A program made the position numbers and the translations under genes. 64,000 nucleotides of DNA from a virus (taxonomy: Duplodnaviria; Caudoviricetes). Position 1 is the stretch's first letter. The number at the start of each line of letters is the position of its first letter. Below, piece after piece: positions 15,451-32,657 of this stretch. The stretch lies in IMG/VR virus record IMGVR_UViG_3300001919_000035, positions 1 to 64,000 of that record; one strand, 5' to 3'. The notes beneath the pieces were generated by a model that worked only from the letters and a program-made list of their open reading frames with translations, made no database searches and was not told where the DNA came from.

Positions 15451-15523
15451 TCTCTATTAGCTCAGTTGAGTAGAGCGTATGATTTGGGTCATAAGGTCAC
15501 TGGTTCAAGTCCAGTATAGAGAA
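15451..15523 (+). tRNA. tRNA-Pro(TGG)-like with a 6-nt anticodon loop
   Basis: Acceptor TCTCTAT/ATAGAGA, D stem GCTC/GAGC, anticodon stem TATGA/TCATA around TTTGGG, T arm ACTGG-TTCAAGT-CCAGT. Confidence 0.75.
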
Positions 15524-15528
15524 CAAAT

Positions 15529-19274: not shown

Positions 19275-19737
19275 AACTTTTTCTTCTAAATAACAATTCA
19301 AAACCACGTTTGCATGTGAATGTAGACGTGGTCATCAGTAAATGACAAACCTGTGGGGCGTAAATAATCTCATGCGTCTGAGTGGTAAATGTAATTCGGC
19401 TTGATGGTGTTAGCACATACATTATCAAAATGTTTTATACACCGCCTTTTAGATGTGCTAGTGGCATGAGTTTTATGATCGTGCGGACGTAAAAATCAGG
19501 TAGATAATAAGAATTGTACTAGCAATACATTTCTGCTGTATCTTTAAACATGTAATTAACGCTATAATTACTCTTTTCATTAGATCTCCTCGCTCATTGA
19601 GAAAGAGTAATTGTTTTCTCTCAAGGGAGTTGCACTTACGCTACAACGTAAGATAAACGAATAGATCAGGCGACCGAAGCCTTATCCAGAATAGTTGTAG
19701 ATATTCTGGCGTCATCAAACTTTTAAACATTATCAAA

Positions 19738-20303: not shown

Positions 20304-20580
20304 TCCGCCAGTCTAATATTCTTGTTTATAACTCTTAATAATTAAATTATGAGTAAAAGGTGGTCAACCCCAAGTATGTTAGTAATACATCTAACGCCCT
20401 AACCTCAGTAAAAGGTATATGAAGTCATATACTACGAGTAGTGTGTACATTTTATGTGCAAATGATATATTCACAGGAATATATTAATTAAAAGAAGGGA
20501 AGGAGATGCTCTCGAATAAGAAATAGGAATAAGAGAGACATACTTTTATTAGCAAAACATTTCAAAATTTAACATTAATA

Positions 20581-21665: not shown

Positions 21666-21707
21666 ACTATCATTTTTTCATTTTTAAGTGATTTTATTCA
21701 CAATATA

Positions 21708-21974
21708 AGAACTGTATTGTGTCTTACTAGGCTTATTAATCATTGTTAGGACGAGGGTTCGACTCCCTCCAGCTCCACGCTCATAAGAGCTACAAAGGGC
21801 AAAGTAAAACTAGGATTTTTGATCGTGTTAACCGTGCGCCAAGTTTTTAAATTTTAGAACGGTTAAAAGGGGCTGCTTGGATTTGACTAGCAAAATTCAT
21901 TAATAAGATAGGTTCATGTGTGTTTAAATGGCAATATTTTTGTCACAGACTATACTCAACTAGCAGTTGCGTAA
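21708..21974 (+). ncRNA. ssrA: Circularly permuted (two-piece) tmRNA
   Basis: The 3' piece GGACGAGGG-TTCGACT-CCCTC-CAGCTCC-A (to 21777) lies upstream of the 5' piece GGGGCTG-CTTGGATTTGAC (from 21869). G3:U70 pair present. Helix 2 pairs CTAGCAA/TTGTTAG and ATTAATAAG/CTTATTAAT. Tag frame 21930-21974 reads GNIFVTDYTQLAVA*. Outer boundaries approximate. Confidence 0.9.
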
Positions 21975-22002
21975 AGTCACGTGCTAACTACGAAAGTGAG
22001 GA

Positions 22003-22056
22003 CTATCTAGTAGAGTAATCGAGTGGAAAGGTGGGTTCGATTCCCACCTAGATAGC
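22003..22056 (+). ncRNA. Minimal tRNA-like element (acceptor plus T arm, 20-nt linker)
   Basis: CTATCTAG/CTAGATAG stem and GTGGG-TTCGATT-CCCAC. Confidence 0.7.
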
Positions 22057-22080
22057 AACATTTTTAAAAATTTATCAAAA

Positions 22081-22419
22081 ATGAATAAGGATGGTTTAAC
22101 ACTAACAATCGAACATTATCGATTGTATGTAATGGAGAACATGCCCGAATCTTGGAAACGGGCTGCACTGAATCACAATGTACTAGAACAGCTTATTGAA
22201 GCTGTAGCTAGGTATTGTCTAGAACATCGCTTAAAAGGCAGTGAATTGTACTATCATTTACATGAAAATGAATTGATATGTGCAGCATCTTTTGATAGCG
22301 AACCTCAAGGAATAGATTGGTGGATGGACATTAGTTCTGAAGCTAGTATGTTAGAGAATCATGGTTGTATTAACACGTATGCAGAAGATGAAGAAAACGG
22401 CAACACAAATGAAGTATGA
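22081..22419 (+). CDS. Hypothetical protein
   Basis: 112-aa ORF preceded by TTATCAAAAATG. Confidence 0.7.
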   Translation: MNKDGLTLTIEHYRLYVMENMPESWKRAALNHNVLEQLIEAVARYCLEHRLKGSELYYHLHENELICAASFDSEPQGIDWWMDISSEASMLENHGCINTYAEDEENGNTNEV

Positions 22420-24961: not shown

Positions 24962-26428
24962 ATGAGCAAGAACAAAGACAATAAAAAAGGAGCACAAGCC
25001 GCTGCTCAGTCTACAAAGAAAGATAATACTGTAAAAGGCAAAGCAGTAGAAAACAAAGTAAAAGAACAGGAAAAGAAAGTTGCCGCTCAGGAAGAAAAAG
25101 TACCTGAAAAGCCGATAGAAGATGCTACAGGTGAATCACCTGCAACTGTACAGGAAGAAACTCCTGCACCAGCTCCTACTGTTCATAACCCTGCCGAAGC
25201 ATCAGCAACAGTATTCAAGAATGCTGAATTGCAAGAAACATTAACAGCTATGGCGCTTACCCCAGAAACCGTTCTGGATGCTAATCATACCGTAGAATTG
25301 TTAACAGTTGCAACAAAGCGTTTTGAAGCAAAAGATCCCCGTAATCCAACGGTTATTGCTGCAAATGAAATGCTGGATGAATTGACTTGTTATTGTATTG
25401 CACTCGCTGGCGTAAATATGTCAGTAAATGGCAAGAAAATCGGTCTTTCTATCCCCGTTGGTGCTCTTCCATCTTATGTACGGGCTATGGGTTACTTTGG
25501 AATTGCACTTCCTGAAGCAAGTGCAGTACCCGATCCTAAGAATCCGGGACAAATGATTATTCCGTTTGACGGAGTATCAAAAGAGACAGAAGAAACTATC
25601 AAAAAGGAAATCAAATTACACAAAGATGCAAAACCAGCAATGGATGTATCGCTGTGGAAATCTGATGAAGATGTAAAGAAAGCAATTTCCTACATCCTCA
25701 GTGATACACTGAGTAAAGATAATCGGTTCCAGGTTTCTCTGTCAAAGATACGTATGTACAAAGTGCTGAACGCAGCTAACGATGATGAAAAGAAGATGTG
25801 GGAATCTGCGTCTCTTTCAGCAATCTTCGAAACAATGCTTACGTTGTTAGGAGACAGTAAGTCTACATTACTGAATGCAGTAGGTGGACAGGTTTATTCT
25901 GCTGCAGCAACACGTAAAAATCCGATCCTTTCGCATCTGGCATTAAAACGGAATTTCCCGCAGTGTACAGATAAAGACATTTCCGAAATTGTTCGGATTA
26001 TTGTCAAGACGAAAGCTGCCTCTATGAATCCGGATCAACCTATTGAGCAGAATATTGCTTGGTTAGGTTTGAACAACGGAAAGCGAGAAGATTGTCTTCT
26101 TATTCCAACAAAATCTACCAGTGAAGATAAAGAAATCATGGGTAGAATTCAGTCCGCATACAGTGACAAAGTAGGTGTTCCCTCAGAAGAAGGTTACAAC
26201 CTGAAAGTTACTAATTTCTTAGCAACAATCGTAAATCTGTACAAAACAGATGATTTCATTACTCAGTACAGTGCAGCTGACTATACTGATTGTGTCAACA
26301 AAGCTTTAGAAGCAATTTCCGGAAAGACTGCTCCTAAAGACGATAAGACACTGGATCCGAAAGAAACTAAGAAAGAAGAAAAGCCGGCTGACAAAAAGGA
26401 AAAGAAGGACGACAAAAACAAGAAATAA
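24962..26428 (+). CDS. Large hypothetical protein with charged disordered termini
   Basis: 488 aa, K/E/P-rich N- and C-termini. Confidence 0.85.
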   Translation: MSKNKDNKKGAQAAAQSTKKDNTVKGKAVENKVKEQEKKVAAQEEKVPEKPIEDATGESPATVQEETPAPAPTVHNPAEASATVFKNAELQETLTAMALTPETVLDANHTVELLTVATKRFEAKDPRNPTVIAANEMLDELTCYCIALAGVNMSVNGKKIGLSIPVGALPSYVRAMGYFGIALPEASAVPDPKNPGQMIIPFDGVSKETEETIKKEIKLHKDAKPAMDVSLWKSDEDVKKAISYILSDTLSKDNRFQVSLSKIRMYKVLNAANDDEKKMWESASLSAIFETMLTLLGDSKSTLLNAVGGQVYSAAATRKNPILSHLALKRNFPQCTDKDISEIVRIIVKTKAASMNPDQPIEQNIAWLGLNNGKREDCLLIPTKSTSEDKEIMGRIQSAYSDKVGVPSEEGYNLKVTNFLATIVNLYKTDDFITQYSAADYTDCVNKALEAISGKTAPKDDKTLDPKETKKEEKPADKKEKKDDKNKK

Positions 26429-26445
26429 ACTAATCATCCATCAAG

Positions 26446-26838
26446 ATGAGACGTACGTCTGATTTTCTTTGGTGTGTAGTGTTTGCATTTATTGCTGTCA
26501 TAACTACCATCAAATTGAGCGGTCCACAGACTGTTGAGGCTTCAGAGGTTCCGTTACCTCTTCCAGAGCTTACTATGCCCAAATTTGTTAATCCTGTAGG
26601 TCGTATTGACCTACAGATTGACTTAAATAAAGGCACTGCGAGAATAGAAAGTGATGCTGATATTGCTACAATTAATACTGTAGTTAATCATCCAGCTCCG
26701 AGTGTTAAACCTAAAACAAAAGTAGTTATAAAGAAAGATACAATAACAGAATATCTGGATAAAGTGGTCATGTTCTCTTTACCTAAAGGTCGTCTTCAGG
26801 TACCAGATATTGAATTTCCTAATAGAGTAGTACGATAA
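26446..26838 (+). CDS. Secreted or membrane-anchored hypothetical protein
   Basis: N-terminal hydrophobic helix FLWCVVFAFIAVITTI. Confidence 0.7.
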   Translation: MRRTSDFLWCVVFAFIAVITTIKLSGPQTVEASEVPLPLPELTMPKFVNPVGRIDLQIDLNKGTARIESDADIATINTVVNHPAPSVKPKTKVVIKKDTITEYLDKVVMFSLPKGRLQVPDIEFPNRVVR

Positions 26839-26924
26839 TGAGTGAAAATGATAAATTAGGATATCTTATATATCTTATGCTGTTAGTATTAGCAGCAGGA
26901 ACTCTTTACTTACTCTGGTGTTAA
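26838..26924 (+). CDS. 28-aa single-TM microprotein
   Basis: MSENDKLGYLIYLMLLVLAAGTLYLLWC*, coupled to the previous stop (TAATG). Confidence 0.5.
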   Translation: MSENDKLGYLIYLMLLVLAAGTLYLLWC

Positions 26925-26929
26925 CAATA

Positions 26930-29200
26930 CGCTCTAAAAGAATGGCGTCAGGTCAAACGAGTATATACCTGTAATAAGATGATATACCGTGGTATTGTAG
27001 CTGTACACGTTAAAAGCAATAAGACAGCGTATATTTTATTTCGATAAGTCTGATCAACTTATGGTATAATATAGACAAAAGATACAGGATAGGAGAATAT
27101 GATAACAGCTACCACTGTGATTCAAAAGGTACTATGATAACTTACTATAGAGTTTTATCTTTTTACTCTAGAAAAAGTAGTAAGATAGTAGGCAAGCGTG
27201 CAATCCTACCTGCAATATATTGAGAACCGATTGGTGAATATATTAGTACAGAAAAGACGCGATCTAGCTCAAGAAGAGACGAAGACAAACAATGCATGGA
27301 GTAAACCTAAGTAGGAAGATATTAGCAACATCAACTGAAATCTCCATAAGAATCCGTAGGTACAATCATGTACGGCATCAAATAAGGACGAAAAAGGTTT
27401 AACTTATATTATATCCAAAGTAATATAAGGCTGATAAAAAAGAACTGACTAACGTTCTCGATGGGTCCAAACTATCGTTAAAAATAGCTACTCTAGTGTT
27501 CCATACTACAGTTATTACTGCTTTGTATTACAGTAATAAGGATCTAGACAACATGACATCTGGCTAAGTCATGGAAGTATGTTTGAAAAGAGTGTTTAAC
27601 TACCAAGAAATTAATAGACGATAACTGAAAGCTGAGTGGCTATGTCCCATTAATTAACTAAAAGAGGTAACGGACTTTTATAAATTAATGACAGGTTATC
27701 CGGAGCAGGAGCCAATCCTGTGCTTGAGAGAGCTTATTAAAATGTTCATCTAGCCTTGCAACCTAGATTAAATAGTTTTAGTAAGGGGGTACTCCAGGTG
27801 CTGGGTTAAAGTCTATATAGGAGTGATTACTATGTCTTCTAAGATTCGTTCCAGAGGATTAAGAAAAGTACGGTATTAAACAAAAGTGACCGAGTTTTGT
27901 GTTTGCAATACATTAGTATTGAAGAGTTATGTCACTATAAGTCATGGAAACAAACACACGGAAGTAAAAGCGCCGAAAAGACTACTACAAACTATTGAGA
28001 TATTGTAGCGAAATATAAGAGTACGAATAAATGGAATTCTACCGCCAAAGAAACAAAGGTGTAGTAAATTTAGTTTAAGCTTTCTTTGATAGATATAACG
28101 AAAGTGGGGCTAGGAAATAGTCAATGGGTTAAATTCAAGGCTTACCAACAATAAGTGCTACTGAACTTACCATGGTTTATCACTGACCCGAGAGTTAACG
28201 AGACTCTTAAACAAAAGCGTTAATTAACATGTCTAACTTACGTAGGCCAAAAAGCCGAATAAATATAATCTGTGGAAGTCCTCGCTAGGGAAACTGACTG
28301 CGACCACAGCTTGGCGAATGCGATTGCTTAGTAGTATCAGAGTATAATGCGCAACATTATATGTTCGAGAGAAAGCGTCTCATTGAAGCTTATAGACCTT
28401 TAAGAGTGAACTGAATAAGGAAACATTACTTATAGACCTGTCATAAGCAAGAGTAAGTGAGAAAAGGTGAAAGTCCTTAATCTTCAACCAAGTAAAATAA
28501 ACAAAATCCTAGTCATGGTTACGTTGGCATCCCTGTACTTAGTAATAAGTATTATATGGCGTAAGAGGTAGGTATTAGTGAATAACTATATGAAACCTAT
28601 AAGTTGTTAAAAGCAACAAATACAACGATGGAAATTCCGTTTGTAACCTTGCAGTTGGTAACGTTTCTGTATAAAACGACCGGACATAACTACTTGCCCG
28701 ATAGACAGTATAAAATCATTAGTAAAGATCTAACGTGATTTAAGTAGGTCAATCTGCTTAATATCTACTATATTAGTAAGAGTTGCAAACTACGTTCTCT
28801 TTATTAGTTAGTCCTGAGAAACCAGGAAACCTAGGTGATTTATACGGATCTTCTATAATAGAGATTATAGAATATGGAATACAACATTAAACCAGTACTA
28901 TGCCCATCGATGGGTCTCATTAGCCCTGGTCACAATGCGGTAGATAGTTCCAAAATGAAGAGGAAGTTAATAATAGTTATCTAGTAAACTTAAGATCCTG
29001 TCTCGATCGAAAAGGAGTCTATATAGTCAGTAGACATAATAGCAAGAACAATAGATATTATTAAAACAATCTTAATATAGCAAGTTTAACGCTTACTTCT
29101 GAGCTTTGCATTGAATTGCATACGACCGTGGTTTTAACCTACCTGATATAAGATGATGGTAAATCGTACAGAAACAAGTATAGAAGGAGCATTATTTTTT
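26930..29200 (+). ncRNA. Candidate very large structured non-coding RNA locus (~2.3 kb)
   Basis: No ORF of 60 aa or more on either strand in the track; many perfect 6-9 bp hairpins and nested helices. Strand assumed from context. Confidence 0.5.
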
Positions 29201-29241
29201 ATTTTATTAATTTTATTAACAATTAAAACTTATCAAAAGAA

Positions 29242-29799
29242 ATGGCAACAATTAAATATGACAGAAAGGTAGCATCACAGCTTGGTGCATTGTTAGGTAT
29301 GAATCTTATTATGATCGAACGGAAAAATGTTGATCCAGATTACTCTAACAAAGAAAGAGATGGTAAACAGCGGTTGGCTAACGAAATTTATATATACGGT
29401 ATCCGGCGCATACGAATTAAACAAGCTAATTTGGTTGACCTTGAAGAAGGTAAACAGATTGTACAGTTCAATGAAGATCCGAAGTTGCAGCTGGAATTAG
29501 CTGATGCTAAAGATATCAGTGATATCATTAAGAAACCGACTGTACAGGAAATCATTACAGCTATCTCAAGTAATGCTGTAGGTCTGCCTAAATATTTTGT
29601 CGATGATGTGACATGTACTGAATTGGTTTGTTCATTCAACCAACGCTCTCGGAAAGAGATCAGTAACATGATGGAGTACCTGTCTAAGCAGGCTTCTTGT
29701 CTGGATGATGCAAATCGTATCATGCAGGATGCATGTAGAGCAGAAATGGCTACACTTGGCCAGTCTGTAGATTTTAAACCCATTAACTTAGGAGACTAA
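29242..29799 (+). CDS. Hypothetical protein
   Basis: 185-aa ORF. Confidence 0.8.
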   Translation: MATIKYDRKVASQLGALLGMNLIMIERKNVDPDYSNKERDGKQRLANEIYIYGIRRIRIKQANLVDLEEGKQIVQFNEDPKLQLELADAKDISDIIKKPTVQEIITAISSNAVGLPKYFVDDVTCTELVCSFNQRSRKEISNMMEYLSKQASCLDDANRIMQDACRAEMATLGQSVDFKPINLGD

Positions 29800-30314: not shown

Positions 30315-30588
30315 ATAGGTTATTTTAAGTTGTTTTGAACTAGGAAGGTATAATAACAATAATAAATAAGTTATTTAATTATAAAAAACATAATATAAAG
30401 ACTTAGGAAGGTTAGTCTTTATAATGGCTGTGATACGGTATCTGTAGTGGATACTAAGTGACGGAAAGCTCTGAGAATAAGAAGGAGATGTCATATCGAG
30501 ATGAACACAGCCTCTCGTTTCTATATATATTGGACGCATTATCAAAATGTTTCTCCGTATAAATTATTAACTAAAAAATTAAATTTAT

Positions 30589-32533: not shown

Positions 32534-32605
32534 GTGTGTATAATTCAACTGGAAGAAATGATTCTTACGAGACTCTATATACAGGTTCGAGTCCTGTTAC
32601 ACACA
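32534..32605 (+). tRNA. tRNA with a poorly paired anticodon arm (Val-TAC or Arg-ACG register ambiguous; possibly degenerate)
   Basis: GTGTGTA/TACACAC acceptor, D loop with GG, ACAGG-TTCGAGT-CCTGT. Confidence 0.6.
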
Positions 32606-32657
32606 CAAATCCGTTACATAAACATTTTACAAAATTATCAAAATTAAAAGTAAAGTC

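Follow-up and report, generated by a model that had tools for sequence, protein, structure and literature searches.

Large structured non-coding RNAs (ncRNAs) of unclear role, such as OLE, GOLLD, ROOL and raiA, are rare, and each of them has opened new RNA biology. GOLLD and ROOL are large 'ornate' ncRNAs of bacteria and phages, about 0.6-0.8 kb in length (PMC5737381, PMC12286853), and the OLE RNA is an ornate, large RNA of extremophiles that forms a membrane-associated ribonucleoprotein (RNP) (PMC10898510). In this study we analysed a window of 64,000 nucleotides (nt), positions 1 to 64,000 of the IMG/VR virus record IMGVR_UViG_3300001919_000035 (a linear viral record of 74 kb with an estimated completeness of 73%), and identified within it a conserved, non-coding, structured RNA locus of ~2.25 kb at 26925-29175 on the + strand, as delimited by its conservation, its lack of coding signal and its consensus fold. 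This locus, hereafter referred to as the element, is probably the gene for a very large structured ncRNA, or for a tightly linked string of RNA domains. The phage is crAss-like and belongs to the family Suoliviridae, subfamily Boorivirinae; its nearest named genome is cr10_1 (Canhaevirus), with ~76% identity over the element, and one IMG/VR contig is 97.7% identical. The genome record holds one copy of the element.

The element is located in a gap between the gene for a 130-aa (amino acid) protein, which ends at 26838, and the gene for a 185-aa protein, with its start codon at 29242. An earlier reading made from this DNA alone (the sequence-only reading) had pointed to 26930-29200 as a region without any open reading frame (ORF) of 60 aa or more on either strand, and this holds for the whole gap 26839-29241, where the longest ORF under translation table 11 is 44 aa on both strands taken together. 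None of the translations with TAG=Q, TGA=W or TAA=Q yields a gene, the longest recoded ORFs being 67-84 aa (TAG=Q, TGA=W) and at most 153 aa (TAA=Q), scattered over both strands. At the 5' side, translation revealed a conserved 28-aa hydrophobic micro-ORF (MSENDKLGYLIYLMLLVLAAGTLYLLWC*; 26838-26924, +), which overlaps the stop codon of the 130-aa gene, lacks annotation and shows a Kyte-Doolittle peak of 2.24; equivalent small hydrophobic ORFs ending in WC/YC(I)* were read by eye in the aligned Boorivirinae relatives. Since the first 87 nt of the gap are coding, the non-coding element starts at ~26925, right after the micro-ORF stop; the micro-ORF is outside the RNA and sets its 5' limit. At the 3' side the conservation stops at ~29175, and an A/U-rich, poorly conserved spacer, recognised from the alignment and its repeats (29176-29241, +), is located directly before the 185-aa gene. 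The span given by the sequence-only reading was close to these limits.

The window was compared with cr10_1 for codon phase, identity and indels, setting the element against four flanking genes. The mismatches per codon phase were 207/215/222 for the element (p=0.66), indicating no periodicity, whereas the mismatches in the four flanking genes were strongly 3-periodic (p=0.003 to 6e-35); codon periodicity was also sought in 300-nt slices of the element and found in none of them. Indels within the element are mostly of 1-2 nt, while those in the flanking genes are only multiples of 3. The identity to cr10_1 is 72.5% for the element versus 61-66% for the flanking genes. Against cr50_1, cr55_1 and cr1_1, blocks of the element are 72-85% identical while the 185-aa protein is just 29-33% identical, and the flanking coding DNA is mostly without blastn match. 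Near-invariant cores (26990-27025, 27690-27710, 28090-28240, 28340-28380 and 28440-28490) alternate with variable stretches. The element is non-coding and under purifying selection. The exclusion of coding potential had been proposed as a check by the sequence-only reading, which had also named poor conservation, a decayed gene and a set of short ORFs as findings that would speak against it; neither the comparison of indels nor any slice gives a sign of coding, and the element is better conserved than the flanking genes and syntenic in five subfamilies.

A gap of ~1.85-2.5 kb without credible gene is present at the same site in all five Suoliviridae subfamilies, represented in our comparison by Boorivirinae (cr10_1, cr50_1, cr55_1 and cr1_1), Loutivirinae (cr4_1, cr53_1, cr52_1, cr60_1, cr56_1, cr113_1 and cr109_1), Uncouvirinae (cr114_1 and cr125_1), Bearivirinae (cr6_1) and Oafivirinae (cr131_1). 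The surrounding order is conserved and co-directional: sigma factor, small transmembrane protein, 455-571-aa protein, transmembrane-anchored 127-189-aa protein, gap, and two proteins of 163-215 aa. The transmembrane-anchored protein is not always directly beside the RNA, and the Loutivirinae carry an extra gene of ~140 aa immediately before the gap. With an nhmmer profile of the Boorivirinae element, other subfamilies match in the order domain A (27085-27243), core M (27690-27730), domain C (28270-28492) and ~28650-28706; core M was matched in cr4_1, cr6_1 and cr114_1, where the order agrees with that of the window, and no match to cr131_1 was reported with this profile. Neither the order of the conserved blocks nor their syntenic site changes among the Suoliviridae subfamilies tested. 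Searching with a pattern of two domain-A motifs detected over 113 contigs in IMG/VR and over 120 in metagenomes, mostly of ~100 kb; those naming a source are from human gut, and some are from JGI samples. Together they form a pool of more than 200 loci for later covariation work. The coding sequences (CDSs) that GenBank/RefSeq records place inside the gap are not conserved between genomes. These include a hypothetical CDS in the RNA locus of cr10_1 (L001:4085-4270) and hypothetical CDSs that overlap co-varying RNA domains, on the - strand in cr113_1 (L091:3938-4375) and cr109_1 (L092:3940-4377), and in cr114_1 and cr125_1 (L093/L094:2585-2746); all of them are probably spurious calls.

The secondary structure was analysed with a collection of 21 Boorivirinae sequences, for which RNAalifold gave a consensus fold of -415 kcal/mol, compared with -229 to -285 kcal/mol for nine column shuffles. 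With a supported helix defined by at least 2 compensatory pairs and less than 12% incompatible cells, the consensus fold contains 23 supported helices versus 3-8 after shuffling, and 8 'strong' helices versus 0. The Loutivirinae, folded separately, yielded 17 supported helices. Two covariance models, R1 (28266-28384) and R2 (27085-27243), were built from Boorivirinae only and tested on the other subfamilies. Model R2 detected 11 out of 11 genomes of the other four subfamilies (E 9e-15 to 5e-5), with all matches on the + strand and inside the syntenic gap and zero off-target. Model R1 matched Loutivirinae (E 2e-7 to 8e-3), Bearivirinae (6e-4) and Oafivirinae (2e-3), and gave a marginal match in Uncouvirinae (E 0.57), all the significant matches again being on the + strand in the syntenic gap.

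Deep alignments led to the same result. For domain A in the distant genomes (12 distinct sequences), 95.5% of cells are paired, and the covariation is 0.413 versus 0.110 after shuffling and at most 0.07 after sliding; for domain A in the metagenome pool (46 distinct sequences) the values are 96.1% and 0.718 (0.173 shuffled, at most 0.144 slid), and for domain C1 in the same kind of pool (33 distinct sequences) 97.1% and 0.439 (0.153 shuffled, at most 0.083 slid). The shuffled deep alignments have 64-76% of cells paired versus 96-97% in the real ones, and several pairs take 4-6 canonical pair types. Because alignments fitted to a model lean to its structure, 36 diverse domain-A sequences were realigned by sequence alone and folded de novo, and two helices of the model returned, together with one new enclosing helix. 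Compensatory pairs above positional controls, the general mark of a structured ncRNA, were thus observed here, and the covariation test suggested by the sequence-only reading gave a strong signal that survives shuffled and slid controls and returns the same helices after realignment. The element folds into dozens of helices maintained by compensatory substitutions.

The architecture of the element is described here from 5' to 3', with all features on the + strand unless noted otherwise. Three 5' hairpins with compensatory changes (26929-33/26944-48, 26949-53/26967-71 and 26996-27004/27024-33) occupy 26929-27033, and the second of them carries a conserved AAACGA in its loop. Domain A (27085-27243), the most conserved module as judged by model R2, the pair counts and the sequence-only alignment, consists of an enclosing helix, a CUUACUA/UAGUAAG stem topped by a variable hairpin, a hairpin of the form GGG../..CCC, and a stem on which the invariant GAGAACCGnnUGG is presented. 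In cr4_1 (Loutivirinae) ~160 nt of the gap precede domain A, enough for a 5' hairpin region of this kind; in cr114_1, cr6_1 and cr131_1 the domain starts at or near the gap start, and the 5' hairpins appear absent. Downstream of domain A the alignment supports two 5-bp hairpins, one at 27360-27373, in which five out of five pairs co-vary, and one at 27460-27476 with A-U/G·U/U-A variation at 27461/27475. Core M, recognised by conservation and nhmmer, includes the invariant TTATCCGGA and the hairpin 27702-10/27716-24. A 6-bp helix with an invariant internal U·G (28126-31/28184-89, spanning 28126-28189) was identified from the alignment and adjoins the invariant core CGAGAGTTAACGnnACTCTTAAA (28189-28211), the pattern of which was found in 33 IMG/VR stretches.

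Domain C, supported by model R1 and by pair counts, contains 44 pairs, 18 of them compensatory. It is composed of the helix 28270-75/28304-09, a closing helix 28310-14/28488-92 with a range of 180 nt, the hairpin 28334-49/28355-71 with its conserved CGCAA loop, and the GGUGAAAGUCC hairpin at ~28465-79 with its conserved loop UGAAAGU. Whole helices are exchanged between genomes: CUGUGG/CCACAG is replaced by UUGUGG/CCACAA, AUCGAG/CUCGAU or CCAGGG/CCUUGG, and CUUGG/CCAAG of the closing helix by CAAGC/GCUUG. At a fixed point of this domain cr50, cr55 and the Loutivirinae carry hairpin insertions that look like expansion segments, and the window clade is without one of them. A conserved hairpin at 28679-28702, found in the alignment and the terminator scan and not assigned to a strand, has co-varying inner pairs and an invariant C·A at 28680/28701. 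The hairpins of the 3' third (28745-48/28753-56, 28813-16/28823-26, 28852-57/28866-71 and 28913-17/28922-25; 28745-28925) are supported in Boorivirinae only. The 3'-terminal block (29140-29175) forms in the alignment a local UACC/GGUA hairpin, which is UAUC/GAUA in cr10_1. A direct repeat, TACCTG.ATAAGATGAT, brackets the element, with copy 1 at 26966-83 and copy 2 in 29140-29175; the 3' copy and its block are kept only in the window/cr10/L064 clade.

The stems that had been picked out by eye in the sequence-only reading fared unequally. CTTACTA/TAGTAAG (27141-47/27178-84), ATAATG/CATTAT (28346-61, with the CGCAA loop) and AAGG-TGAAAGT-CCTT (~28465-79) are real and supported by evolution. Two others exist as stems, TTATTACTG/CAGTAATAA with partial and TTCTATAAT/ATTATAGAA with weak evolutionary support. 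A pairing of the two termini, GTCAGGT (26947) with ACCTGAT (29141), is contradicted by the alignment, in which 26949-53 pairs locally with 26967-71 through compensatory changes (CAGGU/ACCUG, CGGGU/ACCCG, CAGGG/CCCUG and CGGGG/CCCCG); the 29141 site takes part in its own local hairpin and shows no co-variation with the 5' site. Helices of 1.0-1.9 kb span proposed by RNAalifold without span restriction (27938/29144, 28068/29111 and 27321/29237) are weak or lie on poorly aligned 3' ends, and were not adopted.

The RNA strand is very probably the + strand. In the deep domain-A alignment, the helices that co-vary contain 42 G·U cells versus 4 A·C cells, and the positions left unpaired are rich in A and poor in C (A 1504, G 1029, U 992, C 524). 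The internal wobbles of the strong helices are G·U, the loops containing GAAA or GCAA read on the + strand, and all the neighbouring genes are on the same strand. Scans of the element for sigma-70 promoters and intrinsic terminators gave sites no commoner than in shuffles, and the Bacteroidota TAnnTTTG (-7) motif is conserved nowhere in the element on either strand. Since the element begins right after a stop codon, includes no conserved internal promoter motif and has co-directional neighbours, we infer a read-through transcript. That this transcript is a single molecule of 2.2 kb is likely, because the blocks keep the same order within a bounded length and one conservation valley lies inside a closing helix.

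Several observations weigh against the reading of the element as a giant folded RNA, against its strand or against a role for it. The minimum free energy of single sequences gave z = -0.33 and -0.92 for two 1-kb stretches against dinucleotide shuffles, compared with -3.48 for a coding control; the impression in the sequence-only reading of a region packed with helices is therefore not beyond chance on a single sequence, and its list of hairpins is by itself no evidence. The sequences that show the covariation are related, and two alignments had been fitted to the model. When every helix predicted on either strand is tallied without regard to strand, G·U (259) and A·C (268) are in balance, the A·C cells being located at helix ends or in weak helices. 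The hairpin 28679-28702 reads better on the - strand, where a perfect 8-bp stem, including two G·U, is followed by a U-tract and looks like a terminator. The 3' third of the element is conserved within Boorivirinae only. Convincing helices reach at most ~450 nt, which leaves the 5', middle and 3' thirds without a pairing that would join them in a single fold. A scaffold or RNP role is drawn from analogy, and the 185-aa neighbour gives no informative fold match.

The last two structural points bear on a serious though rather unlikely explanation, in which the locus is a cluster of several smaller structured RNAs (5' module, domain A, M, domain C and 3' hairpins), either co-transcribed and processed or separate. 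All the supported helices are local or mid-range (up to ~450 nt), and the valleys of conservation at 27389-27439, 27839-27889 and 29039-29139 may represent spacers. The modules look separable, as Uncouvirinae, Bearivirinae and Oafivirinae apparently have no region before domain A and the 3' third is not family-wide; further small RNAs (Hatchet, RAGATH-9, tRNAs and a motif at 30429-30513) occur separately in this phage arm. Against a cluster stand the block order, which is constant in every subfamily where the blocks were found, the total length, which stays within ~1.85-2.5 kb, and the lack of a conserved internal promoter motif and of terminator-like sites above chance level. The valley at 28389-28439 lies inside the domain closed by the co-varying 180-nt helix, indicating that valleys can be expansion segments.

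A long leader or intercistronic regulator, which would control in cis the downstream genes (185-aa, 170-aa and AAA+) through their timing, termination or translation and would have no function in trans, fits the position of the element: it sits within a co-directional operon, directly follows a stop codon and stops ~65 nt short of the next start codon. We consider this improbable: no known bacterial leader comes anywhere near a length of 2.2 kb with over 20 conserved helices and invariant single-stranded cores, the genes supposedly under its control are less conserved in sequence than the element itself, and it matches no riboswitch or leader of Rfam.

Even less credit is due to an element acting as DNA, be it a replication origin, a packaging site or an array for protein binding, in which the hairpins would be cruciforms or binding palindromes. 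In its favour are the position upstream of an AAA+/DnaC-like ATPase gene, the short direct repeats that bracket the locus and recur inside, and the balanced strand-neutral count of G·U and A·C. The cumulative GC skew, however, rises steadily through the region without inflection, no iterons or tandem arrays are found inside (tandem repeats are confined to the micro-ORF and the 3' spacer), and the locus does not show the combination of GC-skew inflection, AT-rich unwinding element and iterons that marks a replication origin. The 42:4 ratio of G·U to A·C in co-varying helices, the A-rich unpaired positions and the asymmetric loops also speak against it, and compensatory changes in more than 20 non-palindromic stems are unexpected for protein-binding sites. 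Finally, little credence can be given to a protein gene that has decayed or been recoded, or to a self-splicing intron: TAG/TGA recoding and many group I introns are usual in Suoliviridae (PMC7886860), but no stop reassignment opens a frame here, the element shows neither periodicity nor indels in multiples of 3 and is more conserved than real genes, models of group I and II introns (Intron_gpI, Intron_gpII and group-II-D1D4) gave no match at E up to 10, and the flanking ORFs are complete rather than split exons, the 185-aa ORF being intact from its own ATG.

The prediction of a giant structured phage ncRNA in the sequence-only reading is thus supported, and none of the refuting observations tested for was made. 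As for its function, the transcript would be a single RNA, read through from the upstream sigma-factor operon with or without processing, and would act in trans during infection as a folded scaffold; this may take the form of an RNA-only assembly of the GOLLD/ROOL kind, or of an RNP with the adjacent family-specific proteins, some of them membrane-anchored. Such a trans-acting role in infection we infer only, from the analogy with these systems. More ambitiously, and with somewhat less than even confidence, the single ~2.2-kb transcript may form one multi-domain architecture, an RNA machine or scaffold undescribed in viruses. It could be a cage that assembles by itself, an RNP that includes the neighbouring transmembrane proteins and is tethered to the membrane, or a ribozyme. 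The element probably does something central to infection, because it is kept across a whole family of abundant gut phages, and better than the surrounding proteins. If this reading is true, the element would represent the largest non-ribosomal structured RNA class in phages, in one of the most abundant phage families of the human gut; as one transcript, it would be ~3x the largest known phage 'ornate' RNAs. The hundreds of natural variants in public metagenomes make it attractive for covariation modelling and cryo-EM, and the locus illustrates that 'gene-free' gaps in phage annotation can hide major genes.

Upstream of the element, the 129-aa, 130-aa and 28-aa ORFs all contain hydrophobic N-terminal or transmembrane segments, making up three small transmembrane proteins. 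Downstream, the 185-aa and 170-aa proteins are family-specific and are followed by the AAA+/DnaC-like ATPase gene. Neither Pfam nor PHROGs assigned the 488-, 130-, 185- and 170-aa proteins to a family, and the 488-aa protein gave no match when its sequence was searched against PDB. For the 185-aa protein, an AlphaFold model (pLDDT 76.7) found no matching fold in PDB at E up to 0.001, and the homologues in BFVD are from Suoliviridae only; weak SPFH/HflK-like rows for this protein (TM score 0.25) were disregarded.

The phage arm is unusually rich in RNA genes. A Hatchet ribozyme (19331-19501, +; 72.9 bits) and RAGATH-9 (20360-20548, +; 81.6 bits) are located on the same strand ~6-7 kb upstream of the element, and ARAGORN predicted a permuted tmRNA (21688-22109, +) with the tag ANYESEDYLVE*. 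Two tRNAs predicted by ARAGORN (15451-15524 and 32534-32606) have abnormal anticodon loops with 2-nt 'anticodons', and both were confirmed by Rfam (59 and 38 bits); the tRNAs at 32534 and 33541 are 3.3-4.4 kb downstream of the element. Between the 170-aa and AAA+ genes we noticed a second conserved structured RNA candidate of ~90 nt (30429-30513, +), with a 7-bp closing stem GGCUGUG/CACAGCC, three hairpins and the conserved loops CUAAGUGAnGGAAAGC, GAGAAUAAGA and AUCGA. In 8 genomes including one Bearivirinae, 16 of its 21 pairs show compensatory double changes, and no Rfam match was found for it. This candidate may serve the AAA+ gene as a cis-regulatory leader, or it may be a small RNA.

The element matches no catalogued RNA family. 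As had been proposed in the sequence-only reading, the locus was examined by cmscan against Rfam 15, and the scan of the whole window at gathering thresholds gave no match in 26839-29241; a permissive scan of 26400-29700 (E up to 10) gave only chance-level rows of miRNA, snoRNA and lncRNA, and none of the GOLLD, ROOL, OLE, HEARO and raiA covariance models matched at gathering score. A likeness to RNase P, suggested by GGUGAAAGUCC, GAAGUCC and GAGAACCG, which recall CR-I/CR-IV motifs, was rejected as coincidence, as the models are without match and the motif order is wrong. No description of the element was found in the full-text literature searched, including the main comparative paper on crAss-like phages of Yutin et al. 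2021 (PMC7886860), which mentions regions without recognisable proteins, mainly in the Zeta group, and no report of a cultured Suoliviridae isolate was found in the literature searched.

Comparison with the known systems gives likeness on some points and difference on others. Like GOLLD and ROOL, the element is large, intricately paired and borne by a phage or prophage, with conserved cores alternating with variable stems, and its setting is the same, a phage genome with an RNA-rich neighbourhood near tRNA genes. It differs in length (~2.0-2.3 kb versus ~0.6-0.8 kb), has no match in sequence or structure to the Rfam models, and is restricted, as sampled, to one crAss-like family. GOLLD and ROOL form RNA-only homo-oligomeric cages. 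With OLE it shares the character of a large structured ncRNA beside genes for small membrane proteins, a context that the element has in all five subfamilies. Unlike OLE, which is carried by an extremophilic Firmicute, the element belongs to phages of gut Bacteroidota-type bacteria, is 3-4x larger and has no Rfam match; family searches detected no homologues of OapA, OapB and OapC among the neighbouring proteins, and a membrane association of the element would be pure conjecture. In its architecture the element may be set beside rRNA and RNase P RNA, with which it shares invariant single-stranded cores, co-varying helices and lineage-specific expansion hairpins at fixed points. This likeness is architectural only, without homology to the Rfam models, but by such analogy the alternation of cores with expansion hairpins resembles that of RNAs built around a functional three-dimensional core.

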